Made by a program: the position numbers and the translations under genes. The notes beneath the pieces are model-generated. The model searched no databases. It saw nothing but the letters and a program-made list of their open reading frames with translations, and was not told where the DNA came from. A stretch of DNA of 64,000 nucleotides from an uncultured Mycoplasmatota bacterium (lineage in GTDB: Bacteria > Bacillota_I > Bacilli_A > RF39 > UBA660): the NCBI GenBank assembly GCA_945919295.1, contig CAMEJC010000001.1:16973-80972 (forward strand), written 5' to 3'. Positions 3,354-62,680 of this stretch are shown piece after piece. Within the stretch, counting starts at the first letter, position 1; each line of letters opens with the position of its first letter.

Positions 3354-3941
3354 ATGATGATTAGTAAAAGATTAAATGTTGATGATATGTGCAAAAATAA
3401 GAGATGGTATAAAAAAGTAAAAGACTTTTTTGTATACAGCATTGGTTTGAATGTAAGAGATTGGTGGAATAGTATAAAATGGTATTTTAGTAATTTGAAG
3501 CGTTTTCAACCAGTGATTAAATCGTGGCGTTACTGGGATTATCAATATCAAGTTGATTTGTTTGTTTTCGGACTCAAGCAATTGGCGGATGCAATCGATA
3601 GATATGGACATGAAGAAGATGTATCACGCAAAAAAAAGGTTGCTGCAATTAAATCACTTATTGCCGAAATTGAACGTGATTATCAAGATGATGTGGATAG
3701 CCGTAATGAAGATTCTTATGCAAAATATTATGAGAGATACTATGCCGCACTGAAGAGAACGCGTAAAGCACATTATGACAAGATATTCAAACTGATTATC
3801 GGTCAGGACGAATACAAACTACATCAGATGGTCAAAGCCAAGTACGAAGCGTTATCTGAAGAAGAAAAAGAAAAATTCGATTATTTTTCCTCGTATGTAG
3901 AATTGTTCGACGGTTCTGGAATAGAAGGATGGTGGGATTAA
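3354..3941 (+). CDS. hypothetical protein
   Basis: 195-aa ORF; no class-A promoter, so probably co-transcribed with the ligase; visibly higher G+C than its flanks. Confidence 0.45.
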   Translation: MMISKRLNVDDMCKNKRWYKKVKDFFVYSIGLNVRDWWNSIKWYFSNLKRFQPVIKSWRYWDYQYQVDLFVFGLKQLADAIDRYGHEEDVSRKKKVAAIKSLIAEIERDYQDDVDSRNEDSYAKYYERYYAALKRTRKAHYDKIFKLIIGQDEYKLHQMVKAKYEALSEEEKEKFDYFSSYVELFDGSGIEGWWD

Positions 3942-4023: not shown

Positions 4024-4734
4024 ATGAAGATATTTGCTTGGTCAGACGGACATGGTGAGTTTCCACATAAATGGGAAAAAGAAGAACATGTCGACGTAGT
4101 TATAATAGCAGGTGATATTGTCCCATTGCATATTCAACGGGATCCAGAATCATCTTTGAATTGGTTTGAGAGTGAGTTCTTTGATTATGTCAGAAAGGTA
4201 AACGCAGATAAAGTTATACTCGTTGCAGGTAATCATGATTTTATGTTTGAGTATTTCGATAAGAGTTTTATTCTTTCCGAAATAAAGATGCACTCGTTAG
4301 ATGACAAACTTATCTATCTACAGGATGATATGTATGAGTATGGTGGTGAAAAGTTCTATGGAACACCTTGGATTGCCGACCTTCGGAATTGGGCATTCTA
4401 TGCAGAAGACTTGTATGAGAAATTCAGTCATATTCAAACAGGCACAACAATCCTTATAACACATATGCCTCCACATGTGATGAGTGTAGGTTCAACTTAT
4501 CCGTTTGATGATTTTAAGGGTTATCCACAAGAACGCAACTACGGAAGTTTTGCGTTGGCAAACAGAATGACTGAACTTCCGAATCTGAAACTAAATTTCT
4601 GCGGCCATGTCCACACTGGAACACACGGTGGTGTAAAACACGGAAACTGCACTATATACAACGTATCTATCAAAAATGAAGATTATGACAATGTCTATAA
4701 TCAAACTTATGTGGATACGGAAGAATTGATTTAA
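4024..4734 (+). CDS. calcineurin-like metallophosphoesterase
   Basis: SDGHGE, IIAGDIV and LVAGNHDF motifs of the MPP superfamily. Confidence 0.65.
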   Translation: MKIFAWSDGHGEFPHKWEKEEHVDVVIIAGDIVPLHIQRDPESSLNWFESEFFDYVRKVNADKVILVAGNHDFMFEYFDKSFILSEIKMHSLDDKLIYLQDDMYEYGGEKFYGTPWIADLRNWAFYAEDLYEKFSHIQTGTTILITHMPPHVMSVGSTYPFDDFKGYPQERNYGSFALANRMTELPNLKLNFCGHVHTGTHGGVKHGNCTIYNVSIKNEDYDNVYNQTYVDTEELI

Positions 4735-4855
4735 AATATAAATTCAATAATAATTTTTTTTATTATGTATAGTGAATATAATTCAATATAATTTAATATA
4801 ATAACTCATCATAAATATAACAAAAACAACTTTACATTTATACTATATAAATTGA

Positions 4856-6136
4856 ATGAAAACAATTAAGCTTAAAATAATGAACTCAATTGATTTGGAT
4901 TATGAGTTGAGGACTTATAATTCTGTGGTTCATTTTGCTTATAATCGTTTTCATGATGATAGTTCTGTTAAAGAGAAAGATGTCAGGTCTCAAGTAAATC
5001 AACTATTCAAAGGCAAGTTGAACTCATGGTTATTACAATGTGCTATCAAAGATGGTAAGTCAATACAGGAAAGAAATGAAAGTAAAAAAGTTATTTTTGG
5101 AGGCAAGTCATTGTATAAAAGGTATTTAAGAAAACTTATAGACAAAGAAGAATTCAACAAACAAAGACAACTTCCAATATCAAGTCAAGGTGAAATGTTA
5201 CGAAAAGGCAATAGAATGTTTGACTTTCACTTTGATAATCAATCACTTGTCTTTAAAGTATCAAAAAAGAAACACGTAGATATTAAATTAGGCAATATTC
5301 ATAGAAATCTTCAGAAAGAACTTAATAAACTCAATGAGTTATGCTATGATAAAAAGGCAACCATTTCGATAAAATTGAATAATGACTATATTTGGATAAC
5401 TTATGATGAGAAATTACTATGTAATCCAGTGAAATTCAATGAGTTGAAAGATAATAGAATCCTTGGATTAGATCTAAATCCTAATTATATTGGTTTGTCT
5501 GTTATTGAATTTGACAAAGAAGACAATTTTCAAGTTTTATATAAGCAAGTCTTTGACTTAAAGAAAATTACAGATAAAAATGCGTCAAAGAATAAAAGAC
5601 AATATGAGATAATCAAGATATGTCATACAATAAATAGTCTTATAAATTACTGGAAATGTAAGAAACTCTCTATAGAAGATTTGAATATAAAATCAAGCGA
5701 TAAAGGACAAGGGAAAAACTTTAATAGACTGTGTAATAATGTATGGGACAGGACATTAGTGTCTAATAAACTATTGATATTGAGTAATATATATGGGTAT
5801 GGACTTGTTAAAGTGAATCCTGTATACTCAAGTTTCATAGGTAATTTAGTTTATTGTGATTCAGAAACACCAGATATGGTTGCCGCTTCAATAGAAATAG
5901 CAAGAAGATCATATAAAAAATACGAAAAGAATTGGTTTTATCCTATCTTTGACATAGATTGTTTAGATGAGCAATGGAAGCAAACACTGACAGGAGTTAA
6001 AGATTGGAAAAACGCATTCTTAAAAATTAAAAACTCTAAAGTGAAATATAGAGTTCTGCTTAATGACATCGTTCAAAATGCAGTTTTCAGTAAATTCAAT
6101 AGAAAAAGCAAAGTTATTGTATATTCATTTGCATAA
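4856..6136 (+). CDS. TnpB/Cas12-like RuvC nuclease lacking the zinc finger
   Basis: N-term KTIKLKI...LRTYNSVVHFAYNRF matches the TnpB WED/N-terminal signature; RuvC-I ILGLDLNPNYIGLSV; RuvC-II LSIEDLNIK; KVNPVYSSF then ETPDMVAASIEIARR (RuvC-III, cf. DxNAAxNI) with no CxxC pairs between. Confidence 0.6.
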   Translation: MKTIKLKIMNSIDLDYELRTYNSVVHFAYNRFHDDSSVKEKDVRSQVNQLFKGKLNSWLLQCAIKDGKSIQERNESKKVIFGGKSLYKRYLRKLIDKEEFNKQRQLPISSQGEMLRKGNRMFDFHFDNQSLVFKVSKKKHVDIKLGNIHRNLQKELNKLNELCYDKKATISIKLNNDYIWITYDEKLLCNPVKFNELKDNRILGLDLNPNYIGLSVIEFDKEDNFQVLYKQVFDLKKITDKNASKNKRQYEIIKICHTINSLINYWKCKKLSIEDLNIKSSDKGQGKNFNRLCNNVWDRTLVSNKLLILSNIYGYGLVKVNPVYSSFIGNLVYCDSETPDMVAASIEIARRSYKKYEKNWFYPIFDIDCLDEQWKQTLTGVKDWKNAFLKIKNSKVKYRVLLNDIVQNAVFSKFNRKSKVIVYSFA

Positions 6137-6162
6137 CTTTTTATTGAATTTATATTTTAAAA

Positions 6163-6593
6163 TGAAGTACTACAGATATTCGGAAGAAGACATACGTGAT
6201 ATTCTGAACGCCAAAGATAAAAGAGAACTGATGGGGGTGTGGAATAGAATAAATGAGAATGGTTTGATGATAACCTGCTCGGCATGTAAGAATGACTATC
6301 CGTATTTCGAGAGTCCTGTTTTGAAAGATGAAGTTTGGAAGAACGTCACCACATACTATAACTTGCATGATGGATGTATAATGCGTGCAGCATCTGTTCC
6401 GCAGGAAATCAACGCATCGAAAATATATAAGTTAAAGATGCTTATGAATGTGCGCACAAGCAATACAGAAGTATGTGTTTGCAGGAAATGTATGGAAAAA
6501 GCGCTTGGGCATCCTCTTCATGAAAGTGATTTGAATGCCGTTGTTCCAATGAACAAAAAGATTATTAATGAATTGAAGATGACTTCTGCTTAA
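6163..6593 (+). CDS. Cys-rich (zinc-ribbon-like) hypothetical protein
   Basis: Start moved to MKYYRYSEED just after the TnpB-like stop; contains CSACKND and CVCRKCMEKALGH cysteine clusters; coding-like, higher G+C. Confidence 0.4.
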
Positions 6594-6654: not shown

Positions 6655-6702
6655 AAAAAAATTTGGTTGTTTAAAAAAATTGTAGTATCTTTGCAGTGTG
6701 AA
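6655..6702 (+). promoter_or_regulatory. class-A promoter (variant) upstream of the MmeI-like gene
   Basis: AAAAATTGTAGTATCTTTGCAGTGTG. Confidence 0.5.
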
Positions 6703-6742: not shown

Positions 6743-9235
6743 TTGTTATTTATGAGTAAAAGCAAGTTTTTTGAAAAAATAAAAGAAGCTAAAATAGAGC
6801 GTACGGTAGAGGATGTTTATAATGAGGGAATCAACCTCTATTTTCCGACAGACAAAATCATTGAATACCCATTTTCTTGTGACGGATTCGTTGACACAAA
6901 AACCGATAATGGAAAAGTTTTGAAACTAATCATTGAATACAAGTTCAATGAAATAATGTCTAACAGAGTAGCTCGGGCGAAGGTGCTTGTTCAGGTTGTC
7001 TATTACATCAAGAGGTTCGAGCAGAACGGTATGATTCTTCCGAATGTGTGTATGGTAGGCGATAAGGATGAGTGTTTCGTTATGCACACAAACGAACTTC
7101 TCAAATATCTTGATGAGAGTGTTGATTGGTCAATTTCACCATCAAACGCTGCCGCTTCAAACCCTGATTTGGTTCTTAAGATGTCACAAGACGCAAATAT
7201 AAATCCGTTTATCTTTGAAGTCAATGAGGATTTCAGTTTCAAATCTGTTGCCGATAAAATCAAAGATTTGGCAGATAACATTCAAAGATATGTTCGAGTA
7301 ACAGAACATAACCTATCAAAGATTTTCGACTACTTCTGTAAGAATGTTTTGAAGGAAAAAACAAAATTGAGTGCTCATGACATGGTTGAAATCTTTATGG
7401 GTGTTATCGGTGATAAAATGAATTATTTTCAACACCCAAGCAACCCTAATGTTCTTGTTTGCAAAGGAAAGAACGTGAATATGGATGAAAATGCGTTCAA
7501 GTCTTTTTTCGGATATTTTGACCGAAACTATACACCACAAGAAACTATGCGTCTTAACGGGATTGCCGATAGACTTATAATAGAAGCCGACAGACGAAAA
7601 AGTGGTGATTTTTGGACACCTACAATATTCGTTGACTATGCTCACGATATGATTTCAAAAGCTCTCGGTGAAGATTGGAAAGAAAAGTATGTTGTGTGGG
7701 ACAACTGTTGCGCATCACTTAACCTTACGAGAGATTACAAGTTCGGTGAACTATACTGCTCAACCCTTTATCAAAGTGAACTAAACATCGGTGCTGAATA
7801 TAACCCAGAAGCAACAAAGTTTCAATTTGACTTCCTAAATGATGAGATTGTTGGTAAAAATTCTTTGCTCGGAGTGTATAATGATAAACTACCGAAAGGG
7901 CTGAAGGACGCACTTATCAATAACAAACCTATTGTGTTCTTTTTGAACCCTCCTTATGCTACAAGTGCAACATTTACTGCTACAAATCAAAAGACTGATG
8001 GCTGCTGTGACAATATGGTTGCTGAAATGATGCGTAATGACAAACTCGACCTTGCATGCCGTAATATGATAACTCAATTCCTTTATCGTATTATTAGAAT
8101 TAAAAATGAATTTAATTTAACTAATTGTCATATAGCACTTTTTACAAATCCAAACTTTATTTGTGCTAATAGTTTTACTATGTTCAGAAACCTTTTCTTT
8201 GAAAACTTCAAATATGATAATGGTATTTACTTTAATGCAAGCCACTTTGCTGATGTTAGCGACAAATGGGGTATTGCTTTTGAAATTTGGCACAATGGAA
8301 CACAAACTGATAGAGATAACTTTATTCATAAAGTTGTTGAAGTTGAAAATGGTGAAATTGTTGATAAATTTGACAAAGGTATTTACAACTGCGATAATGC
8401 AATTAATACAAGTGAATGGATTAGAGAGATTGATGTATCAAAAACGAAAATTGATTTACCAATACTTAAAAGTGGTATAAATCAATTTGAAAATCCAAAA
8501 AACAAAAAAATTGGTCATTTAACAGATGACGCTATCGGTTGCTATTATCACGTTGCAAGTGATGTTTATCATTCAGCAACTTATGTGGCATTATTTACTG
8601 CTAATTGCTCTCATCCAAGCGGTAAATGGGGTATCACTAAAAATAACTTCGATAGGATAATGGTAACATTTGCCGCTAGAAAATTGGTAAATGATTGTTG
8701 GTACAACGACAAAGATATTTTCATTGCTCCTAACACCGAACACCCTGCATACAATGAGTTTGTGAACGACAGTTTGATTTATAGTCTGTTTCATTCATCA
8801 TCAAACCAATCTTCACTCCGTAATGTTGATTACAAGGGAAAGAAGTGGGACATCAAAAATGAGTTCTTTTGGTTGTCAAATAAAGAGATTGAAAGTCTTG
8901 CTAACACAAATGGATTCACACAAACCTACAATGATGCAAGAACTTCAAAAGAAAGATATGTTTACAACAAACTACAAACCATAACATTATCACCTGAAGC
9001 ACAAGCAGTCTTGGACAAGGCAAATGAGATAGTTAGAAACACATTCAAATATCGTGAAATATTCGACCAAGAACACCCCGAATATCAGATTATGAATTTT
9101 GATTGTGGATGGTATCAAATCAAAGCTGTTGCAAAGCAATATGCCAAATCAGATTATGATGAGTTTGTCAAGTTATTCAAGGCGTTAGAAAACAAAATGC
9201 GTCCAATGGTCTATACGCTTGGTTTTTTGAGATAA
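6743..9235 (+). CDS. MmeI-like Type IIL/IIG restriction-modification fusion enzyme (PD-ExK nuclease plus gamma-class N6-adenine MTase)
   Basis: N-term GFVDTKTDNGKVLKLIIEYK (PD-(D/E)xK, cf. MmeI GFVD...IEMK); GDFWTPTIFVDYAHDMI (motif X); VWDNCCASLNL (degenerate motif I); FLNPPYATS (motif IV NPPY); long C-terminal TRD-like region; preceded by a class-A promoter. Confidence 0.5.
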   Translation: MLFMSKSKFFEKIKEAKIERTVEDVYNEGINLYFPTDKIIEYPFSCDGFVDTKTDNGKVLKLIIEYKFNEIMSNRVARAKVLVQVVYYIKRFEQNGMILPNVCMVGDKDECFVMHTNELLKYLDESVDWSISPSNAAASNPDLVLKMSQDANINPFIFEVNEDFSFKSVADKIKDLADNIQRYVRVTEHNLSKIFDYFCKNVLKEKTKLSAHDMVEIFMGVIGDKMNYFQHPSNPNVLVCKGKNVNMDENAFKSFFGYFDRNYTPQETMRLNGIADRLIIEADRRKSGDFWTPTIFVDYAHDMISKALGEDWKEKYVVWDNCCASLNLTRDYKFGELYCSTLYQSELNIGAEYNPEATKFQFDFLNDEIVGKNSLLGVYNDKLPKGLKDALINNKPIVFFLNPPYATSATFTATNQKTDGCCDNMVAEMMRNDKLDLACRNMITQFLYRIIRIKNEFNLTNCHIALFTNPNFICANSFTMFRNLFFENFKYDNGIYFNASHFADVSDKWGIAFEIWHNGTQTDRDNFIHKVVEVENGEIVDKFDKGIYNCDNAINTSEWIREIDVSKTKIDLPILKSGINQFENPKNKKIGHLTDDAIGCYYHVASDVYHSATYVALFTANCSHPSGKWGITKNNFDRIMVTFAARKLVNDCWYNDKDIFIAPNTEHPAYNEFVNDSLIYSLFHSSSNQSSLRNVDYKGKKWDIKNEFFWLSNKEIESLANTNGFTQTYNDARTSKERYVYNKLQTITLSPEAQAVLDKANEIVRNTFKYREIFDQEHPEYQIMNFDCGWYQIKAVAKQYAKSDYDEFVKLFKALENKMRPMVYTLGFLR

Positions 9236-10041: not shown

Positions 10042-10419
10042 ATGTCTATGGATACAAAAGTTAATGTGGGAAAAAGTAGTAGTTTCCTAAAAAGAGTATT
10101 TGGAGTTACGTCAATGGAGAAATCAGTTAACCATGTTTATACTACATTTAAAGGTGGTTATGGTTCATATAATCTTGGTATGACCTATTGGGATTATTTT
10201 TGTTTATGGGGGCATTTAAGGATTCGTTATGATGAAACAGATTTAATTGATGGATGGAAACATATTAGTATACATGGATATAGAAATGGATATACATACA
10301 CGCCTGTTAAAAAATTGTTGTGGACTTTTAAGCATCATATTGCGTTTAATAATAAATGGCCATTTATAAAAATTGGTTTCCATAGAATATGGCCGTTGTA
10401 TGATAAAGAAAAATTTTGA
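10042..10419 (+). CDS. hypothetical protein
   Basis: Start moved to MSMDTK to avoid overlapping the upstream stop. Confidence 0.4.
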   Translation: MSMDTKVNVGKSSSFLKRVFGVTSMEKSVNHVYTTFKGGYGSYNLGMTYWDYFCLWGHLRIRYDETDLIDGWKHISIHGYRNGYTYTPVKKLLWTFKHHIAFNNKWPFIKIGFHRIWPLYDKEKF

Positions 10420-10426
10420 TAAAATT

Positions 10427-11197
10427 ATGGATATGACAAAAGAGGAAAAAATAAATAATTCAAATGTAATTAAAAATATTTCTTATGATCAAAAAGAAAT
10501 ATTATTTAATGTGATGAAGTTATATAATAATGGTGAGCCTTTTGATTGTGATATAACAGCTTCATCATTAAAATTTTATGAACAAAAAAAGAATGATAAA
10601 TATTTTATACCTGAACCAAAATATTTATTTGATGTTTATCCACAATTTGATAAAATACAAAAAATAACACCTTTTAATAAAATACCATTAGAAGATGGTT
10701 CAATTAAATCAATTGTCGTTGATTTACCTTTCGTAATATGTCCTAAAACATGTGCTTCAATGAAAAGGGATAATAAAGAAAATAAAAAAAGTTGTATAAT
10801 AGCAAATAGATTTAGTTCTTGGTATCCATATATGGAAGGGTATGAAAATATGTATTGGTGGATGAATGAATGTAATCGTGTATTAGCTGATGGCGGTATA
10901 ATCTGTTGGAAAATGCAAGACACTATTAGTGCTAGTATATATCATAGTTTCATTGAATTTTGTAAAATTTGTGGACAAGATGTTGGTTTATATTTAATAG
11001 ATGAGTTCTTCTTGGAGGCTAAATCACGCTTAATAAGCGCACCAAAAATGAAACAACAACAACATAGTAGAAAATACACATCAAGTTTCATTGTTCTAAA
11101 AAAAGACATTAAAAACGGAAATAAATATTCACCATTAAAAATACTAGAACAATGTAAAAAAAATGTTTTTGAAGGTAAAACATACGAATTTAAATAA
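10427..11197 (+). CDS. hypothetical protein, possible degenerate DNA MTase (DLPF)
   Basis: Start at MDMTKEEK just after the upstream stop; IVVDLPF resembles MTase motif IV, but no clear FxGxG motif. Confidence 0.3.
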   Translation: MDMTKEEKINNSNVIKNISYDQKEILFNVMKLYNNGEPFDCDITASSLKFYEQKKNDKYFIPEPKYLFDVYPQFDKIQKITPFNKIPLEDGSIKSIVVDLPFVICPKTCASMKRDNKENKKSCIIANRFSSWYPYMEGYENMYWWMNECNRVLADGGIICWKMQDTISASIYHSFIEFCKICGQDVGLYLIDEFFLEAKSRLISAPKMKQQQHSRKYTSSFIVLKKDIKNGNKYSPLKILEQCKKNVFEGKTYEFK

Positions 11198-11203
11198 AAT
11201 TTT

Positions 11204-11892
11204 ATGGAAATAAAATTATATAAAGGTGATTGTTTTGATTTATTAAAACAAATAAAAAATAACACTATTGATTTAGTATTAATTGACCCACCTTACGAAG
11301 TTTCCAGAGATACTAACTTCGCAAAAGGAAAAATAAAAGGTACTGATGTAGATAGATTTAGAGTATCAATGAATTTTGGTGATTGGGATAATAACTTTAC
11401 TGGGTTAGACATTGTAATTAAAGAATGTTATAGAATATTAAAAAAAGGCGGAACATTAATATGTTTCTACGATTTATGGAAAATTACTGTTCTTAAAGAA
11501 TATTTTGAAACAGCAAAGTTTAATCAAATAAGGTTTATTGAATGGATAAAAACAAATCCTGTACCATTAAACAGTATAATAGCAGAGAAATTGCATTAGT
11601 TGGTGTAAAAGGTGGAAAACCAACATTTAATTCTGAATACGATAATGGTATATATAAGCATCCTATTTGCCATGATAAAGATAGGTTTCATCCAACACAA
11701 AAACCACTATCTTTGATTGAAGAGTTGGTGTTAAAACATTCAAATGAAGGTGATTTAGTCCTTGATTGTTTCATGGGAAGTGGTACAACAGGTGTTGCTT
11801 GTAAAAAATTAAATAGAAATTTCATAGGAATGGAAATTAATGAAACTTATTTCAATAAAGCAAAAGAACGAATTGTAAACAAAAATATGTAA
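11204..11892 (+). pseudogene. frameshifted beta-class DNA methyltransferase (paralog of 285-1019)
   Basis: N-part has IDPPYE; C-part has HPTQKP and LDCFMGSGTTGVACKKLNRNFIGMEI; the two parts are in different frames and overlap at 11542-11599; the alignment to 285-1019 is continuous across the shift. Confidence 0.6.
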
Positions 11893-12354: not shown

Positions 12355-13563
12355 ATGCGTAGATATATTAAAAATTTTTTAAGATCAAGAGGTGTTGTTG
12401 AATATAGTGAACAAATGATATATATGGGTTCATTAAAACGTGATGTGCCTAATTTACGTCTAAACAATGACAGATTTATGGTTGCTGCTTTGAGAATGTT
12501 ATTTGATGGTGAACTATCTAATGATGAAGATAAACGCTCATTAAATGTAATTCTTAAACATATTAATAATTGTGGTCAGGTATATAATTATAACTATAAC
12601 CTTAATGGGTTAAAATTAAGTGAGTTGTCTAATAAATATATTGATGAAATAAAATTAAATTCAGAAAACGATAAGGAACGTAGTGCAAAAACAAAACGTT
12701 GTAATGGTAATGGTTATAAGATTATTCCAATTTACTCTTTTGAAGAAGCAAAACAATATAGTAAATATACTGAATGGTGTGTAACTAAAGAATTAGATGA
12801 TTTTAAAGATTACACTAAATGTGGTAATAAGCTTTATTTTTGTTTGAAAGATGGTTTTGAACAAGTTCAACGTAATGACGATGGAGCACCATTGAATGAA
12901 TATGGCTTATCGATGCTTGCTGTTTTAGTCGTTTATAATGGAGATTTGTCTATTATATCAACTAGATATAATCATGAACATAACGGTGAGAATAATGACA
13001 ACTTAATAACTGTTGAACAATTGGAAAATGTTCTTGATGTTAATTTTTATGATATATTTAAACCATATACTACTGAAGAAATGGATGAACTTGGCATTAT
13101 CTTAATTAACCAAGCTCAATCTCTACTTGATAGTGGTAAAGAACCAAGTGAGGTTTTTGAAACTTGTTATGAGTTTTCTGAAGGGTTTGCTGTTGTGTTC
13201 TTAAATAATAAAACTAATTATATTGATACGAATCATAAGTTATTATTACCTAATCAATGGCTTGATTTTTGCTGTAATTTTAAAGAAGGATTTGGACAAG
13301 TTGAAATTGATCATAAATGGAATTTTATTAATGCTAATGGAGAATTATTATCCCAAAATCAATGGTTTGATACTTGTTTTAGTTTTTCTGAAGGGTTTGC
13401 TGTTGTTAGGCTAAATAATAAATATAATTTCCTAAAAACTAATGGAGAATTATTATCACCGAATCAATGGTTTGATAAAATTCGTGATTTTGAAGAAGGT
13501 TTTGCTGAAGTTGAATTAAACAATAAAAGATATAAAATTAATACTAAAGGTGAATTGTTGTAA
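12355..13563 (+). CDS. WG-like beta-repeat protein (paralog A)
   Basis: Start at MRRYIKNF by paralogy with 13651; C-terminal 4 repeats of roughly EGFAxVxLNNKYNFIxxNGELLSPNQWFD (WG-repeat-like); class-A promoter 12261-12318. Confidence 0.55.
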   Translation: MRRYIKNFLRSRGVVEYSEQMIYMGSLKRDVPNLRLNNDRFMVAALRMLFDGELSNDEDKRSLNVILKHINNCGQVYNYNYNLNGLKLSELSNKYIDEIKLNSENDKERSAKTKRCNGNGYKIIPIYSFEEAKQYSKYTEWCVTKELDDFKDYTKCGNKLYFCLKDGFEQVQRNDDGAPLNEYGLSMLAVLVVYNGDLSIISTRYNHEHNGENNDNLITVEQLENVLDVNFYDIFKPYTTEEMDELGIILINQAQSLLDSGKEPSEVFETCYEFSEGFAVVFLNNKTNYIDTNHKLLLPNQWLDFCCNFKEGFGQVEIDHKWNFINANGELLSQNQWFDTCFSFSEGFAVVRLNNKYNFLKTNGELLSPNQWFDKIRDFEEGFAEVELNNKRYKINTKGELL

Positions 13564-13577
13564 TTTGAAAAAAATCA

Positions 13578-13626
13578 TTAACATAGAAATCGTTCATTTA
13601 GAAATTTTATTGTATCTTTGCAGAGT
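13578..13626 (+). promoter_or_regulatory. class-A promoter (variant)
   Basis: ATTTTATTGTATCTTTGCAGAGT. Confidence 0.5.
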
Positions 13627-18504: not shown

Positions 18505-19497
18505 ATGAATAATTTAATGAATTGGGCGGAGAGAGAGTGCCGTCTTGCTTGTAAAAAAGAGAATCCAGATTATGATTTCGACAGTAACGTGTTCGACTAC
18601 GGATGCTCGTGTTATAAATCCGCACTTAAAGCATATAATTCCCTAATGGAAGATGGGCATAGTGGTAGCAGTTTCGGGTTTACAAAGAATATACTTATTA
18701 AGTTGATGGATAGGCAACCATTAACTCCTATTACTGATGATGATTTCTTTAGCGTAGAGAGAGGGACTGAAGCATATCCGTTGGAGTCGGACGAGTATCT
18801 TAAAGAGCGTGGTTTGAAGTCTCACTATCAATGTCCGAGAATGTCAAGTCTGTTCAGAGAGGAGACGTTGGATGGAAAGATTAGTTACCATGACATTGAT
18901 AGAGCATATTTTGTAAATATAGAGGATCCGTCTGATACGTATACTAGTTGGGATAGATTTCTCGATGATATGTTTCCTATAACAATGCCATATGTTCCTG
19001 AAAGAGGTAAGTATAAAATATATGCCCAAACGTTTCTTGCCGATAAGAATAATGGTGATTTTGACACAAAGGGAATCTTGTATTTAATAACTCCATCAGG
19101 AGAAAAGGTTGATATAGGAATATATCTAACAGAAAAGGACGGAAAGATGGTTAATATAACAAAAGATGAGTATGAGCAACTTCTTCTTAAACGTGTAGAT
19201 AAACTCAATGCGAAAATTGCTAATGAGTTAATATGGACTCTCATAAGTAATAGTACTTCTGATAAAGAAATAAGCCGACGCGAAAAGTTATATGATGCTC
19301 GTTCAAAAGAATTGAAGGAAAGAGATATTAAAGAACTCAGTAAGTTATGTGAGTTTTTCTGCAATCCTGATAATTACAAATATAACAATTTCGGTATGCA
19401 CCAATCATTGTGTAAGGGAGAAAAGGAGAAATATGAAAACGTTCCTGAACTTGTAGAAATAGCAGAATATTTGGATGGAATATTGAAATCTTTATGA
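18505..19497 (+). CDS. hypothetical protein
   Basis: 330-aa ORF followed by terminator 19589-19628. Confidence 0.45.
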   Translation: MNNLMNWAERECRLACKKENPDYDFDSNVFDYGCSCYKSALKAYNSLMEDGHSGSSFGFTKNILIKLMDRQPLTPITDDDFFSVERGTEAYPLESDEYLKERGLKSHYQCPRMSSLFREETLDGKISYHDIDRAYFVNIEDPSDTYTSWDRFLDDMFPITMPYVPERGKYKIYAQTFLADKNNGDFDTKGILYLITPSGEKVDIGIYLTEKDGKMVNITKDEYEQLLLKRVDKLNAKIANELIWTLISNSTSDKEISRREKLYDARSKELKERDIKELSKLCEFFCNPDNYKYNNFGMHQSLCKGEKEKYENVPELVEIAEYLDGILKSL

Positions 19498-19644: not shown

Positions 19645-19688
19645 AAATTGTATATTTAAAATAAAAGTACTATCTTTGCAAATAGTTT
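19645..19688 (+). promoter_or_regulatory. class-A promoter (variant)
   Basis: AAAAGTACTATCTTTGCAAATAG. Confidence 0.45.
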
Positions 19689-20594: not shown

Positions 20595-21398
20595 ATGTAC
20601 AAATTAAAAAATATTGCTTATTATGATAACTTAAAAAAAACTTTTAATAAACACTATTCAATCATTACTCGAAAATATATTAATAGAAAAAATATTGGTA
20701 CTACTTCATTTCTATTCTATAAATATAACCCTTCTTCGATTAACGACTTCTTCATTAAATATATTAATGACCCTTCACCTTTTTTTAATAAAAATAATTC
20801 TACTGGACATTTATTCCACGGTAGAAATATTAAACAACTTAATGATATCGCTTTTAATTGTTGGAAAGAGATAAATAATAAAAACATAAGTCAAAATATG
20901 TGTCTTGACATTATTATTAACCACACTATTATTGAAACTTATGTAGGACTAAAAGCCGAACTTTTTATTAGAAATTTAATAATAAAACAAAATAAATTCA
21001 ATGTAAAAAATACTTATGGTTTCCTAGATGCTAATTGCGGTGTTGACCTTATTATTAATAATAAAAATAATGATATGCCTATTTTCTTCTTACAAATTAA
21101 ACCTAATACTTTCTTCGCTAATACTATATATAATACGCAACTATTGGAAGATAAATTAGCTCTATTTGATAAACAAAAAAATCTTAATCAATTCATTAAG
21201 GATAATAATATCATTACTAAATATAATGATACATTATTCCTTATTTATAACGCTTATCAGTTAAAATATAATAATAAACTTCTATGGCTTAACTTTAATG
21301 ATAATTTTAAATTTAATCTAAAACAACTTATTAATGATAAGGCTCAAACTATTATTGACATCAATAACATAAATAATTATAAACAAATTACTCTATAA
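20595..21398 (+). CDS. hypothetical protein (possible PD-(D/E)xK-like)
   Basis: 267-aa Asn-rich ORF; GVDLI...FLQIK pattern. Confidence 0.35.
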   Translation: MYKLKNIAYYDNLKKTFNKHYSIITRKYINRKNIGTTSFLFYKYNPSSINDFFIKYINDPSPFFNKNNSTGHLFHGRNIKQLNDIAFNCWKEINNKNISQNMCLDIIINHTIIETYVGLKAELFIRNLIIKQNKFNVKNTYGFLDANCGVDLIINNKNNDMPIFFLQIKPNTFFANTIYNTQLLEDKLALFDKQKNLNQFIKDNNIITKYNDTLFLIYNAYQLKYNNKLLWLNFNDNFKFNLKQLINDKAQTIIDINNINNYKQITL

Positions 21399-26534: not shown

Positions 26535-28124
26535 TTATTTTTGTTTTAAGTGAAAAATAATTTCAGAATAAGCCTTTTTATTTTTTTCAGTTCTATTAAG
26601 AACAGGTCTTTTGAATTGTTCTACAATTTTCATTCCTGCTTTTTCTGCTATAGTTGGATAAAGATTATATTTGTCGTTAGCTACTAAAAAGACATCATAA
26701 TCATCGGCCAGGTATTGTTTGCAATTATTAAGAACATCCGAAATACCTTCGATGTATGACAGTTGAGCTTCTAATTTTTGTCCTTTGAATAATGGTCCTA
26801 TTTCAAGTTCATCGTTACGCTTAAACCCAAACAAATCGTAGGCATAAGCATGTTGTTCATGATAATCTATTAAACCCACATAAGGTGGTGATGAAAAAAT
26901 GCCCTTTATTTTCTTTGATTTAACTAAGTCGGCAAAATCTTGGTTCGTTGATTTCAATTGATCAATAATGTTAATTGACCGACTATCTCCTGTTATACAA
27001 TATTGATAAGTGTTGGTTCTGAGTGCATCAAAAATCTGTAACCTTTTAATGGTATCCTTTGTATAAGTTTCCCACCATTTCAGAATAGAGAATAAAGGTT
27101 TGCACATTTTGCCATGTTTATGACAATAATATGTAGTTGTAACAGGTTCTAATAAAGTAGCCAAATCAGCATGTGTAGTAGCACGACAGCTACGAATTGT
27201 TCGACTTAATATAACGCTAATTATCTTTTTAGTTGAAGACTTTTGAATCTCTTTTATCTTCTCAAATACAAAATCAATCTCTGCTCTTACATTTGGGAAA
27301 TACCATTTGTCAAGAAATGTTTCGTTTTTATCTTGTCGAAGTTTTATTCCATATTTATTTACAATATCATTATAGGTATCAAGAAATTTTTTTTCATAGA
27401 CTACAGAATATTCTTTTTCGTTTATTTCTTTTTGTTGTAATCTGTACTTGTAATCGGGAACAGGGAAATATAAGTTGTTGAACTCATTAAGTTTTTGAGT
27501 TAGTTCATCATCAAAATCACGAATATGAGATTCAAAAACAAATTGTTTTAGTGCCTCTGTTATTCTTTTTGTTTCCTTAATAACATCTGAAATGTCATAT
27601 TTCATTACTTTACAATTGCCGATTAAGGCATTGAAAGCAGAAACATCTATGCCTATTGCATGAAGACCCATTTCACAAGCTTGAACCATTGTTGTTCCAC
27701 TTCCAGAAAAAGGGTCTAAAACTATATCACCTTTTTGAAAATAAACATCTTTTTTGAAGTTGTCAGTATGGTCGTCTAAAAAGTATTCTACCAACTGAGG
27801 GATATATTTTCCTTTATAAGGATGTAATCTATGTACGTGTTTGGTTGTGTCAGTTTCTTTTAGATTATCAAATGATAAAGCCCAATTCAAATCGTTTCCC
27901 AATTTTTCTTTCCATTCAACTTCTCTTTTTCCTTTAGCTGATTCATAATATGATACTAAATCTGCTTTACTAATCATTGTAGAGCCATTTTCTACATATT
28001 TTTTTACTTTTCCATATTGAACAAGGTACATAATATTGGATGTGGTAACATTTTTGCCTGTAAAATCAGTTGCAAATAAAGATGCTTCTTTGATTGTTAT
28101 TAAATCTTTTAAGTTATTTGTCAT
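26535..28124 (-). CDS. DNA methyltransferase (motif I before motif IV; N6A/N4C)
   Basis: VLDPFSGSGTT (motif I), then a long insert, then FSSPPY (motif IV); flanked by near-identical 47-bp direct repeats. Confidence 0.7.
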   Translation of the reverse strand: MTNNLKDLITIKEASLFATDFTGKNVTTSNIMYLVQYGKVKKYVENGSTMISKADLVSYYESAKGKREVEWKEKLGNDLNWALSFDNLKETDTTKHVHRLHPYKGKYIPQLVEYFLDDHTDNFKKDVYFQKGDIVLDPFSGSGTTMVQACEMGLHAIGIDVSAFNALIGNCKVMKYDISDVIKETKRITEALKQFVFESHIRDFDDELTQKLNEFNNLYFPVPDYKYRLQQKEINEKEYSVVYEKKFLDTYNDIVNKYGIKLRQDKNETFLDKWYFPNVRAEIDFVFEKIKEIQKSSTKKIISVILSRTIRSCRATTHADLATLLEPVTTTYYCHKHGKMCKPLFSILKWWETYTKDTIKRLQIFDALRTNTYQYCITGDSRSINIIDQLKSTNQDFADLVKSKKIKGIFSSPPYVGLIDYHEQHAYAYDLFGFKRNDELEIGPLFKGQKLEAQLSYIEGISDVLNNCKQYLADDYDVFLVANDKYNLYPTIAEKAGMKIVEQFKRPVLNRTEKNKKAYSEIIFHLKQK

Positions 28125-39132: not shown

Positions 39133-39157
39133 AATATTAATTTTTTAAGTTAATTAG

Positions 39158-39244
39158 TACCACCAGTGGGATTCGAACCCACACGGACATTACTGCCCAA
39201 CGGATTTTAAGTCCGTCTTGTCTGCCTAGTTCCAACATGGTGGC
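39158..39244 (-). tRNA. tRNA-Leu(TAA)
   Basis: 87 nt; acceptor GCCACCA/TGGTGGT; anticodon arm ACGGA-CTTAAAA-TCCGT (anticodon TAA); long variable arm; T-arm GTGGGTTCGAATCCCAC. Confidence 0.85.
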
Positions 39245-39257
39245 TTATTCATTTTAT

Positions 39258-39533
39258 TTATTTTCTATCACCTATATATTCAACCAATGACTTCATATCA
39301 CGAACTAATTCATCTTTTACCCATGCCTTATCAGCATCGCCACTTAAAGCCATTACTACATCCCGATAACTCAAAATACGACGTTCAGGGTCAGGATGAA
39401 TAGACATTAAAAATGGGTCATCTAATTTATGGCTCAATAGGTCTTTAAAAACTAATTCCATTATCGAAAGTAATACTGAATCATATTCACTACTATTCTC
39501 TTTTTTCCAAATAATAAAATCTTCGTTACTCAT
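39258..39533 (-). CDS. hypothetical protein
   Basis: 91-aa ORF. Confidence 0.4.
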   Translation of the reverse strand: MSNEDFIIWKKENSSEYDSVLLSIMELVFKDLLSHKLDDPFLMSIHPDPERRILSYRDVVMALSGDADKAWVKDELVRDMKSLVEYIGDRK

Positions 39534-39565
39534 ATTATAACTTTTTTTCTATTTCAACAAAATAA

Positions 39566-40174
39566 TTATAAAATTCGTTTACCAATTTTTATTTTCTTTG
39601 CTACAACTTTAGAATCAAATTCATGCCTTTCATCAGAAACTCCTTCAAGCTCAACCTCATGAACAACTATTTCTTTTCCTAAATCTCCATAATAGTAGCT
39701 AAATACATCAGTTAGACTTAAACAAGCGTGAAAACCTTGTTTACATAATAGAGGTTTACCTTTAATTTTATAAGTCTTACCTTCTTCATATTGAAAACCA
39801 CGACAAGTCATATTTGAATTAAATACTTTATATGCTTTGCATTTACCTTCAACTACTTCTTGTGTTTCATAGGTTGTATTACCAATAATTACACTTTTTA
39901 AATTGTTACAAATATCGAAAGCAAATCCTTCAATACTCGTTACTGAATTTGGAATTGTAATAGAAGTAAGATTTAAACAGTCTTTAAACGCACAACGTCC
40001 AATTTCCGTTATTGAGTTAGGTAGAGTAATAGAAGTAAGTAAGGTGCAACCACAGAATGCATAATATCCGATGCTTGTATATCCATCAATCATATCAGAA
40101 GTAATAACTTCTAATTTATCTAATCCAAGTTTTTCTATAAGTACTCTTGTTAATACTTTTTCTTCATTTTCCAT
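39566..40174 (-). CDS. BspA-type leucine-rich repeat protein
   Basis: YAFCGCTLLTSITLPNSITEIGRCAF... matches LRR_5/BspA repeats; C-terminal domain shared with 44270-45016. Confidence 0.55.
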   Translation of the reverse strand: MENEEKVLTRVLIEKLGLDKLEVITSDMIDGYTSIGYYAFCGCTLLTSITLPNSITEIGRCAFKDCLNLTSITIPNSVTSIEGFAFDICNNLKSVIIGNTTYETQEVVEGKCKAYKVFNSNMTCRGFQYEEGKTYKIKGKPLLCKQGFHACLSLTDVFSYYYGDLGKEIVVHEVELEGVSDERHEFDSKVVAKKIKIGKRIL

Positions 40175-40245
40175 AATAACTAAATTTATTCTAAAAGTTT
40201 TTTACATGATAAATTAATGGAGTTCCGTCATCATATTTATAGTTG

Positions 40246-40330
40246 CGGAGGCTGTAGGATTCGAACCTACGGTACCTATTGGTACGGCGATTTTCAAGAC
40301 CGCTGGATTAAACCACTCTCCCAAACCTCC
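40246..40330 (-). tRNA. tRNA-Ser(TGA)
   Basis: 85 nt; anticodon arm GCGGT-CTTGAAA-ATCGC (anticodon TGA); long variable arm; T-arm GTAGGTTCGAATCCTAC. Confidence 0.85.
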
Positions 40331-40419
40331 ATATTATGGCTACTTTTATTTTCACACTGCAAAGATAATATATTTTTTTGAGATATAAAACAATTTTGTT
40401 TATAAAAATAGATTATCTT

Positions 40420-44269: not shown

Positions 44270-45016
44270 TTATAAAATTCGTTTACCAATAGTTATTTTC
44301 TTTGCTACAACTTTAGAATTATCTTCATCCCTTTCATCAGAAACTCCTTCAAGTTCTACCTCGTGAATAACAATATCTTTTCCAATTTCACCATAATAAT
44401 AGTCAAACACATCCAAAAGGTTCAAACAAGCGTGAAAACCTCTATTACACAATTTAGGTTCACAGTCAATCTCATAAGTCTTACCTTCTTCATATTGAAA
44501 ATCACAACAAGTTAAATCAGCCTTAAATGCTTTATATGCTTTACATTTACCATTTGTTACTTTTTGTATTTCATAGGTTTTATCTCCAATAACTATACTT
44601 TTTAATTTATAGCATCTGTAAAAAACACACTCTCCAATGCTTGTTACGGAGTTGCCGATGGTTACCGAAGTCAGGCCGAAGCAACCAGAGAACGCACCAT
44701 CTCCGATGCTCGTTACGCTGTTAGGAATCGTTACCGAAGTCAGGCCGCTACAACGGGAGAACGCACCATATCCGATGCTCGTTACGCTGTTCGGTATCGT
44801 TACTGATGTCAGACCGCTGCAATCATTGAACGCAGAACCTCCGATGCTCGTTACGCTGTTCGGTATCGTTATCGAAGTCAGGCCGCTGCAACCAGAGAAC
44901 GCATAAATTCCGATGCTTGTATATCTATCAAGCATATCAGAAGTAATAACTTCTAATTTATTTAAACCAAGTTTCTCTACAAGTTCAAATGTTAGTATTT
45001 TTTCCTCATTTTCCAT
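44270..45016 (-). CDS. BspA-type LRR protein with recently expanded 23-aa repeats
   Basis: Start MENEEKILT by paralogy with 39566; four near-identical 69-bp units at 44634-44909 encode SGLTSVTIPNSVTSIGxGAFSxC repeats; C-terminal domain shared with 39566. Confidence 0.55.
   Translation of the reverse strand: MENEEKILTFELVEKLGLNKLEVITSDMLDRYTSIGIYAFSGCSGLTSITIPNSVTSIGGSAFNDCSGLTSVTIPNSVTSIGYGAFSRCSGLTSVTIPNSVTSIGDGAFSGCFGLTSVTIGNSVTSIGECVFYRCYKLKSIVIGDKTYEIQKVTNGKCKAYKAFKADLTCCDFQYEEGKTYEIDCEPKLCNRGFHACLNLLDVFDYYYGEIGKDIVIHEVELEGVSDERDEDNSKVVAKKITIGKRIL
44634..44909. repeat. four tandem 69-bp near-identical repeats (LRR-coding), G+C-rich relative to the genome
   Basis: Anchors CCGATG/CCAATG at 44634, 44703, 44772, 44841 and 44910; period exactly 69. 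Confidence 0.8.
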
Positions 45017-45656
45017 TGTAACTAAATTTAATTTTTTTATTATTAAAATATTCAATAATTTCTTCAAGAGACCATAATTGTTTTTGTCCATCCCAACCAA
45101 CATCTAATCGTAAGTCATGACAATTTTCATTTATTTCATCAATCCTACCATGACAATGACCATGTAGCATTATAGAACCATGTTCCATTGACCACCAATC
45201 CAACATTGGAAAATGACAAAGGAATAGACGTTGTGTTTCATTAAGAAATTCAAATCTACTTTTTTTGCAATCTAAAAGATACATTTGTTTACAAGTAACC
45301 CAACCATGAATAGATTCTCCTGAACTATCGTGATTACCTTTAATTAAATGTTTCTTTCCATGCAGCTTATGGAAAATCTTTTGCGTCTCCTCTACGCCAT
45401 AAAAAGAGAAATCACCTAAGATATATACTTCATCTTTCTTATCAATTATACTATTCCATTTGTTAATAATAAAGCAATCCATTCGTTTAATTGCCTCATC
45501 CTCGCTAATTTCAGTATTAGTTGATAAGTCAGTATAAACCCATTTATCTTCTACCTTATCACATTTAACACCTATATCTGCACAACGCTTTGGTGTATAA
45601 TGTAATATATTTTTATGGCCAAAGTGGGTATCACTTGTAAAATATAATTTATTCAT
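45006..45656 (-). CDS. metallophosphoesterase (PP-lambda/calcineurin-like)
   Basis: SDTHFGH, YILGDFSFYG, KGNHD and HGHCHG motifs. Confidence 0.6.
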   Translation of the reverse strand: MNKLYFTSDTHFGHKNILHYTPKRCADIGVKCDKVEDKWVYTDLSTNTEISEDEAIKRMDCFIINKWNSIIDKKDEVYILGDFSFYGVEETQKIFHKLHGKKHLIKGNHDSSGESIHGWVTCKQMYLLDCKKSRFEFLNETQRLFLCHFPMLDWWSMEHGSIMLHGHCHGRIDEINENCHDLRLDVGWDGQKQLWSLEEIIEYFNNKKIKFSYNGK

Positions 45657-54239: not shown

Positions 54240-54271
54240 AGTTCAATTATTAATTTTAGTTTAATAAATTG

Positions 54272-54358
54272 TACCACCAGTGGGATTTGAACCCACACGG
54301 ACATTACTGCCCAACGGATTTTAAGTCCGTCTTGTCTACCTAGTTCCAACATGGTGGC
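54272..54358 (-). tRNA. tRNA-Leu(TAA), second copy
   Basis: Near-identical to 39158-39244 with a few substitutions. Confidence 0.85.
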
Positions 54359-54464
54359 ATATTTCAAAGATTAGATACTCATTTGAGTACTTTTATTTTC
54401 ACACTGCAAAGATAATATTTTCTTTTGAGATATATAACAATTTTGTTTATAAAATTTATAGTTG

Positions 54465-54549
54465 CGGAGGCTGTAGGATTCGAACCTACGGTACCTATTG
54501 GTACGGCGATTTTCAAGACCGCTGGATTAAACCACTCTCCCAAACCTCC
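54465..54549 (-). tRNA. tRNA-Ser(TGA), second copy
   Basis: Identical or near-identical to 40246-40330. Confidence 0.85.
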
Positions 54550-62624: not shown

Positions 62625-62680
62625 TGGTACTGCAAAGGTACAACAAGTTTTTCATATATATGGAAACTTTGTTTATAAAA
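62625..62680 (-). promoter_or_regulatory. class-A promoter
   Basis: Same consensus. Confidence 0.55.

Follow-up and report, generated by a model that had tools for sequence, protein, structure and literature searches.

A putative stand-alone restriction–modification enzyme, distantly related to MmeI and DrdV, from a family that the sequence libraries tested miss

MmeI has a five-part layout of nuclease, spacer, methyltransferase, target recognition domain (TRD) and C-terminal region, and its catalytic nuclease residues are D70, E80 and K82 (PMC4833311). DrdV, a Type IIL enzyme (PDB 7lo5/7lvv), is also a single chain with an N-terminal nuclease, a connector, a gamma-class N6-adenine methyltransferase and a C-terminal TRD (bioRxiv 10.1101/2021.01.06.425610). 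A review of jumbo phages describes a comparable case, in which modification enzymes are fused to nucleases with a restriction fold and attack host or superinfecting DNA (PMC7824862). Here, we compare these enzymes with the product of a gene at 6743–9235 in a 64,000-nucleotide stretch of contig CAMEJC010000001.1 from an uncultured Mycoplasmatota bacterium; this whole stretch is called the window. From sequence comparison and fold modelling, we consider it fairly probable that the gene encodes a stand-alone single-chain Type IIG/IIL-like restriction–modification enzyme of a distinct family outside the MmeI family proper, and the protein appears to be distantly related to both MmeI and DrdV. That the protein methylates and cuts DNA is suggested by analogy with these enzymes, as are its manner of cleavage and its biological target. 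An earlier sequence-only reading had proposed the order of an N-terminal nuclease motif, gamma-class motifs X, I and IV and a C-terminal recognition-like region. This order holds, with the motifs where they had been placed and a variable cassette after NPPY, so that nuclease, connector, gamma-class methyltransferase (X, I, IV) and variable region follow one another in a single chain.

The open reading frame (ORF) at 6743–9235 on the forward (+) strand is uninterrupted over 830 codons counted from a TTG at 6743, which is residue 1 in all residue numbers used here. An open frame of this length at about 30% G+C rules out chance, so the gene is real, and the single long polypeptide read from this interval earlier is confirmed as a frame. 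Its start has been moved, since the 100% identical database protein P0001 has 827 amino acids (aa); the ATG at 6752 is thus the probable start, and the coding sequence of the 827-aa enzyme runs 6752..9235 (+) with its stop codon at 9233–9235. An exact-protein lookup of P0001 returned no record. Reading the sequence located the strings CDGFVD...LKLIIEYK, RRKSGDFWTP, VVWDNCCASLNLT and FFLNPPYA. The closest relative of the gene, with 80% identity, is on a pig-gut contig (L167). In this comparison, the ratio of nonsynonymous to synonymous substitution rates (dN/dS) is 0.04 for aa 1–402 and 0.11 for aa 658–827 (0.11–0.14 is given for the C-terminal domain). The gene is maintained by strong purifying selection.

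The N-terminal part, aa 4–178 (6752..7276, +), is assigned as a putative RecB-like PD-(D/E)xK nuclease domain from its conserved residues, hhalign comparison and a fold model. Its key residues, all on the + strand, are D47 (6881–6883; D47-G48 6881–6886), E65-Y-K67 (6935–6943), Q84xxxY88 (6992–7006) and LPNVCMVGD107 (7037–7063). Conservation was counted over 151 diverse family members, the denominators being the sequences that have the region concerned. D47 and E65 are each kept in 121/123 members, K67 and Q84 each in 120/123, and Y88 in 119/122. The arrangement D...ExK...QxxxY is the signature of RecB-like PD-(D/E)xK nucleases. The D/E/K site proposed in the sequence-only reading is present, but the conserved Asp is D47 of CDG and not D51 of GFVD, four residues away; D51 is variable across the family (E in 27, K in 14, T in 12 and D in 10). 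Loss of the catalytic D/E/K residues on alignment had been named as a check, and no such loss was found; the conservation of about 98% also disfavours the alternative offered there of a nuclease-dead orphan methyltransferase. A separate AlphaFold2 (AF2) model of residues 4–208, with a predicted local distance difference test (pLDDT) value of 89, shows an alpha-beta-beta-alpha-beta-beta core in which D47 lies just ahead of strand 1, ExK ends strand 2 and QxxxY is in the next helix. About three-quarters of the top 50 Foldseek matches of this model are PD-(D/E)xK nucleases, though none is individually significant, and they include bunyavirus cap-snatching endonucleases, RecU, Exo5, Cas4, DXO/Rai1, EcoO109I, DrdV and BpuSI. 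The connector to the methyltransferase, aa 179–272 (7277..7558, +), is near-invariant in close relatives. In the AF2 model, it consists of mixed helices and strands at low to moderate confidence, and hhalign found no similarity between it and the helical spacer of MmeI.

The methyltransferase motifs lie in the segment 7559..7957 (+), with motif X, RRKSGDFWTP, at 7592–7621, motif I, VVWDNCCASLNLT, at 7691–7729, and motif IV, NPPY, at 7946–7957. The family consensus is RRxxGxFxTP ... VVWDCAxGTxNLTRDY ... NPPY, and the order X–I–IV is that of a predicted gamma-class N6-adenine methyltransferase. Within the 151-member set, G288 is kept in 148/148 sequences, T292/P293 in 146/148, D320 in 146/150 and NPP in 148–149/149. 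Across 50 diverse members, with a mean column identity of 34%, D47, E65, Q84, R284, G288, T292, P293, N402 and P404 are invariant, and there is very little variation at K67, Y88, D320, P403 and the Gly of position 324. Position 324 (7712–7714) is Gly in 148/150 family representatives, and the window protein is the sole one with Ala among the 151; P0002, its closest relative at 80% identity, also has Ala324. Inteins of 209–347 aa occupy one shared site in motif I (VVWDxx / C...GN / CGTxNL), for which the window equivalent is N321-C322-C323 at 7703–7711. The carriers are P0106, P0135, P0142, P0209, P0239 and P0275, at least one of which has a LAGLIDADG-like motif; inteins at the motif I Cys occur in 5/150 family clusters (33–55% identity to the window protein) and in the close relative P0106. 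Insertions at this Cys mark the motif I loop as a constrained site, which we count in favour of the proposed enzyme.

The variable cassette, aa 406–660 (7958..8722, +), covers the latter half of the methyltransferase fold and the presumed TRD, which is beta-rich and spans roughly aa 520–650. In close relatives, aa 1–405 and 661–830 are near-invariant; aa 406–660 are hypervariable, with alternative versions shared in a mosaic manner. Compared with L167, the cassette has 42% identity and a synonymous divergence (dS) of 1.75, and the flanks have 96–98% identity and a dS of 0.16–0.28. Such a divergent cassette between near-identical flanks points to replacement by recombination and not to fast drift. 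The best identity of the window cassette among about 475 relatives compared is 42.5%, so the window protein probably has its own specificity. The pattern is typical of specificity domains, and a TRD role is presumed from the position and variability of the cassette. The conserved C-terminal domain that follows, aa 661–830 (8723..9232, +), is mostly helical, carries the strings NEFFW and WDCGWYQIK and is modelled with a pLDDT of 85–98. All of 50 diverse members retain N706, R771, D787 and Q792. This domain shows no similarity by hhalign to the TRD or the C-terminal bundle of MmeI, and it may act as a scaffold, in dimerisation or as part of a DNA clamp.

For comparison with MmeI, its sequence (919/919 identical to PDB 5hr4) was used to gather the MmeI family. 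Both genes are solitary, with the same order of parts and a swappable specificity region. True membership of the MmeI family would account for this shared domain order, for the alike GFVD and ExK strings and for a weak hhalign alignment with ExK, QxxxY and LPxV..D in register. In this register, ExK corresponds to E80-M-K82, Q84xxxY88 to Q94xxxY98 and LPNV..GD107 to LPRYVLVCD115. However, PF20464, PF20465, PF20473, PF20466 and PF20467 are present in 120/120 MmeI relatives listed, and none of these five domains is found in the window protein even at E ≤ 1 or in the 50 family members scanned. Profile alignment of the two families recovers the nuclease core only (probability 25%, E 8e-4); by domain, the N-terminus reaches 39% (E 3e-4) and the methyltransferase 60% (E 8e-5) over motifs X and I. 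Nuclease-core alignments overall fall at probabilities of 14–39% and E 3e-4 to 2e-3, and nothing was found for the spacer, TRD or C-terminus (probability below 1%). The structural alignment gives about 10% identity. Motif IV is NPPY here and NPPF in MmeI, and the conserved Asp lies 18 residues ahead of the Glu here compared with 10 in MmeI; in addition, the Asp of GFVD is unconserved in the family. The presumed TRD is about 130–150 aa here compared with 205 in MmeI, and the C-terminal domain about 170 aa compared with 94. With no MmeI Pfam domains and hhalign matches to short cores only, membership of the MmeI family is rejected at the sequence-profile level, and we regard it as scarcely tenable. 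The nuclease motif had earlier been called very close to that of MmeI; that description does not survive, since hhalign probabilities of 25–60% apply to the nuclease core and motifs X and I only.

The full-length AF2 model, built from 43 sequences, has a pLDDT of 77 and a predicted TM-score (pTM) of 0.68. Foldseek ranks its PDB matches as DrdV (E 5e-6), MmeI (2e-4), PglX/BrxX (3.5e-4 to 7e-4), CamA, M.BseCI and M.TaqI. The matches to DrdV and MmeI extend along almost the entire model. The TM-scores are low (about 0.2), which indicates that the domains match and that their arrangement does not. DrdV, which also appears among the N-terminal-domain matches, aligns over 778 columns; however, the identity is 13%, the TM-score about 0.2 and the root-mean-square deviation above 30 Å, and DrdV has 1029 aa compared with 827 here. 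The family sequence profile gave no match to DrdV in the PDB, and a phmmer search of the PDB with the single protein gave a chance match only. The best viral fold match is a phage 'N-6 DNA methylase', A0A8S5SDC8 (E 1e-22, TM-score about 0.5). The proposal of an MmeI-like Type IIL enzyme is thus borne out in that the closest solved structures are DrdV and MmeI, but the protein lies outside the MmeI family. Type IIG enzymes of the Eco57I/BpuSI kind (PDB 3s1s) have the layout predicted here, an N-terminal PD-(D/E)xK nuclease fused to a gamma-class methyltransferase and a TRD, and BpuSI is among the N-terminal fold matches; however, BpuSI is outside the top 50 full-length matches, and the window protein has no Eco57I match. 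The sequence is compatible with cleavage that needs one site (IIG) or several (IIL). Either kind of enzyme would cut at a fixed distance, and Type IIL behaviour would add modification of one strand.

The methyltransferase core is also shared with multi-protein systems. The family profile matches the Type I HsdM structure 3ufb across motifs X, I and IV (E 0.004, the sole PDB match below E 0.01), and the BREX proteins PglX/BrxX (8q56, 9ewz) share the gamma-class N6-adenine methyltransferase core (Foldseek E 3.5e-4). The Foldseek matches to PglX/BrxX (E 3.5e-4 to 7e-4) would suit a protein that depends on partners within a methylation-based defence encoded by several genes, whether BREX PglX-like, DISARM-like or Type ISP-like. 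However, HsdM and PglX lack an N-terminal nuclease, and the nuclease motif found here is absent from PglX; they act in multi-protein systems, whereas no conserved partner accompanies this gene among neighbours within 4 kb at 163 loci, which is what is expected for a one-protein system. DrdV and MmeI outscore PglX, PADLOC gave no match (0 families at E ≤ 1 for the window protein), and the window neighbours scanned include neither a helicase nor a PglZ or BrxC-like gene. The possibility of a better match to PglX or DISARM methyltransferases, which had been named as a check, therefore found no support, and we judge a multi-gene system to be very improbable.

The family is extensive. Among the candidates scored, 2,439 clusters at 90% identity have E ≤ 1e-3; 50%-identity representatives number 1,494, of which 620 are below 1e-30, and most are full length (800–870 aa). 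Members occur in IMG/VR viral contigs, many of 200–673 kb, in metagenome-assembled genomes (MAGs) and isolates of many phyla, and on plasmids. The plasmid hosts belong to Lactobacillus, Ligilactobacillus, Virgibacillus, Acinetobacter and Fluviibacter, and the RefSeq copies listed for them bear the annotation 'hypothetical protein'; examples of plasmid copies are WP_011476642.1 on pMP118 of L. salivarius UCC118, WP_101871945.1 on pFAM8627 of L. helveticus FAM8627 and the copy on Acinetobacter pYUSHP14-3. The relatives listed have neither names nor precomputed Pfam domains. In a Pfam scan of 50 members, Eco57I weakly matches 2/50 and N6_Mtase 1/50, and neither tblastn nor megablast found a match in the 50,697 phage records of INPHARED. 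On its sequences, the family is a separate large lineage missed by every library tested; the kind of system is already known. Many distant relatives (24–29% identity) match only from about 245–273 to 827, including those in Bacteroidales and other MAGs (L054–L085) and on B. thuringiensis plasmids (H13–H20); these relatives are either without the nuclease and connector or have a different N-terminus.

Bacteroidales and B. thuringiensis plasmids carry relatives in which residues 1 to about 270 are missing. These relatives imply that the methyltransferase–TRD module can stand alone, and they bear on a different explanation, in which the protein is a protective anti-restriction methyltransferase only. 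Its cassette would then track host specificities, and the N-terminal domain would serve DNA binding, oligomerisation or an unrelated nuclease task. The gene also has many orphan methyltransferases and counter-defence genes around it (a Tad3 homologue, an RNA ligase and phosphoesterases), and its fold relatives include the solitary CamA, M.BseCI and M.TaqI as well as phage 'N-6 DNA methylases'. However, the retention of D47, E65, K67, Q84 and Y88 at about 98% over roughly 120 divergent lineages would be surprising if the domain had no catalytic role. Furthermore, the dN/dS value of 0.04 spans the nuclease domain, and the top structural matches are bifunctional enzymes. We thus consider a purely protective role unlikely.

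Several observations weigh against a bifunctional enzyme. The element has five further methyltransferases, so that a purely protective role is conceivable, and a conserved nuclease motif does not amount to proof of cleavage coupled to the recognition site. Searches of Pfam, NCBIfam, PADLOC and PHROGs with the window protein gave no significant match, the homology to MmeI is weak (hhalign probability 25–60%) and confined to two short cores, and the best Foldseek match of the N-terminal model in the PDB has an E of 0.03, with no single match significant. AF2 confidence drops under 50 in the surroundings of motif X and in the residues that follow motif I and NPPY. Finally, the window copy has Ala324 together with Leu at the second Gly position of motif I, which could weaken binding of S-adenosylmethionine (SAM). 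M.TaqI has Ala at the position equivalent to 324 and is nonetheless active; Ala324 is thus a caveat and no proof of inactivity.

If the protein is a bifunctional restriction–modification enzyme, a mechanism can be proposed after MmeI and DrdV, in which the methyltransferase–TRD module would bind an asymmetric site and flip out the target adenine (PMC4833311; bioRxiv 10.1101/2021.01.06.425610). Transcription would start at a promoter of the host type. The bound enzyme would either methylate the adenine, marking the DNA of the carrier element, or cut, and methylation would be in competition with the assembly of several site-bound molecules. The element's own DNA would be shielded by methylation, and unmodified DNA of the host or of rival elements would be cut. 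Specificity would be altered by recombinational swapping of cassettes between conserved flanks.

A promoter-like element lies at 6662..6695 (+), about 57 nt upstream of the ATG, and consists of TTTG at 6662–6665, a gap of about 20 nt and TATCTTTGCA at 6686–6695. It resembles the Bacteroidota −33/−7 consensus (TTTG / TAnnTTTG). The box TAnnTTTGCA occurs in 25 copies in the window compared with 6.3 expected, and 0/100 shuffles reach 25; 24/25 copies point the same way as the genes around them. A longer 22-mer version occurs in 8 copies compared with 0 expected. The full two-box pattern of Bacteroidota promoters, taken by itself, is about as frequent in the window as expected (4 copies compared with 4.1), and the enrichment is confined to the −7-like box with GCA. 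The gene had been credited with its own promoter of a recurrent class; the recurrence is real, and the promoter function is inferred from the sequence pattern. The Bacteroidota-type −7 likeness of the box hints at the host. The recurrent form is TA(T/C)CTTTGCA, found on the + strand within the first 20 kb and on the − strand past 26 kb, with one exception at 3390–3399; example sites are 1911–1920, 13613–13622 and 19671–19680 (+), and 40358–40367, 54405–54414 and 62631–62640 (−).

The gene occurs alone on 9–13 kb plasmids, near toxin–antitoxin, partition and replication genes. In cultured bacteria, its neighbours include HsdS and a reverse transcriptase (Clostridium nigeriense), a nuclease of the PLD family (Salinicoccus) and an HNH protein (C. 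yunnanense). In the window, five methyltransferase ORFs were located, in agreement with the number read earlier, and they may contribute to self-protection as proposed there; these beta-class ORFs are at 285–1019, 1057–1878, 10373–11197 (weak), 11204–11892 (frameshifted) and 26535–28124 (−). The ORF at 11204–11892 (+), for an N6/N4 methyltransferase, is split into two overlapping frames, 11204–11599 with DPPY and 11542–11892 with the FMGSGTTG SAM-binding loop; decay to a pseudogene through a frameshift, programmed frameshifting and a mistake in the assembly are the candidate explanations. The block also holds an RNA ligase, phosphoesterases, a ParB, a sigma factor, a thymidylate synthase, seven tRNAs and, at 18505–19497 (+), a homologue of Tad3 (Pfam E 7e-22), which inhibits Thoeris. 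A 267-aa ORF at 20595–21398 (+) matches the restriction endonuclease MjaI just below threshold (E 1.3e-4, 22.3 bits compared with a cut-off of 22.7) and could be a further nuclease. Carriage by a phage, as the sequence-only reading had it, is plausible from PHROG matches to non-structural genes and from relatives in IMG/VR contigs, but no phage structural gene is present in the 64-kb window.

In the minus-strand half, a pair of tRNA-Leu(taa) and tRNA-Ser(tga) genes occurs in two copies, at 39157–40330 and 54271–54549 (−), and the ORFs at 39566–40174 and 44270–45103 belong to common PHROG families; together, these suggest a segmental duplication. Stop-codon recoding was considered for the short minus-strand ORFs and rejected, because recoding TAG or TGA gives no longer ORFs. 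Upstream of the gene, a 426-aa ORF at 4856–6136 (+) has strings like those of TnpB/RuvC by eye and no Pfam or PHROG match; it is flanked by 27-nt inverted repeats at 4730–4756 and 6135–6161 (93% complementary), the whole spanning 4730–6161. The corresponding region of L167 reads RNA ligase, 195 aa, metallophosphatase, 143 aa and the target gene. Judged by called-gene lengths, L167 is apparently without the 426-aa ORF and a 176-aa Cys-rich ORF at 6063–6593, so this part of the window looks like an insertion.

Five contigs from different metagenome samples (L001–L005), about 99.4–99.8% identical, carry a 3.3-kb segment with an 825-aa homologue and a 60-aa ORF in opposite orientations between the same flanks, one in L001 and L005 and the other in L002–L004 (L001:9218–12641 compared with L002:9253–12641). 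The breakpoints are at 103-nt inverted repeats that are 91% complementary (L002:9212–9314 and 12539–12641), and more repeat copies lie nearby. L001 and L005 contain an additional 964 bp with a 271-aa gene, and HTH_OrfB_IS605 fragments occur near the homologue in all five contigs. The segment either is invertible or reflects a polymorphism that arose by recombination. The window gene itself is flanked by weak inverted repeats only (24 nt, 79%), so the inversion of these relatives is not evident in the window.

More tentatively, the family may represent a major lineage, overlooked until now, in which a single protein couples methylation with nuclease activity and is specialised for mobile elements such as huge phages and plasmids. 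The enzymes would be offensive against host and rival DNA, with their specificity re-assorted across elements by swaps of the roughly 255-codon cassette between flanks that are nearly the same and, in some genomes, with the whole gene on an inverting 3.3-kb segment bounded by 100-bp inverted repeats. We regard this wider proposal as possible, though doubtful; if true, the lineage would hold new recognition specificities that have yet to be tapped. If active, the enzymes would form a third sequence-distinct lineage of single-chain restriction–modification enzymes beside the MmeI-like and Eco57I/BpuSI-like ones, and the specificity of such enzymes is the easiest to re-engineer. Roughly 1,500 clusters with naturally shuffled cassettes could then give many new cutting and methylation specificities. 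Since Pfam, NCBIfam, PADLOC and PHROGs miss the family, inventories of defence and counter-defence in huge phages and plasmids overlook it. The abundance of the family in huge phages is mildly surprising, and it would bear on the question of large phages wielding restriction-like nucleases as weapons, beyond evading host restriction.

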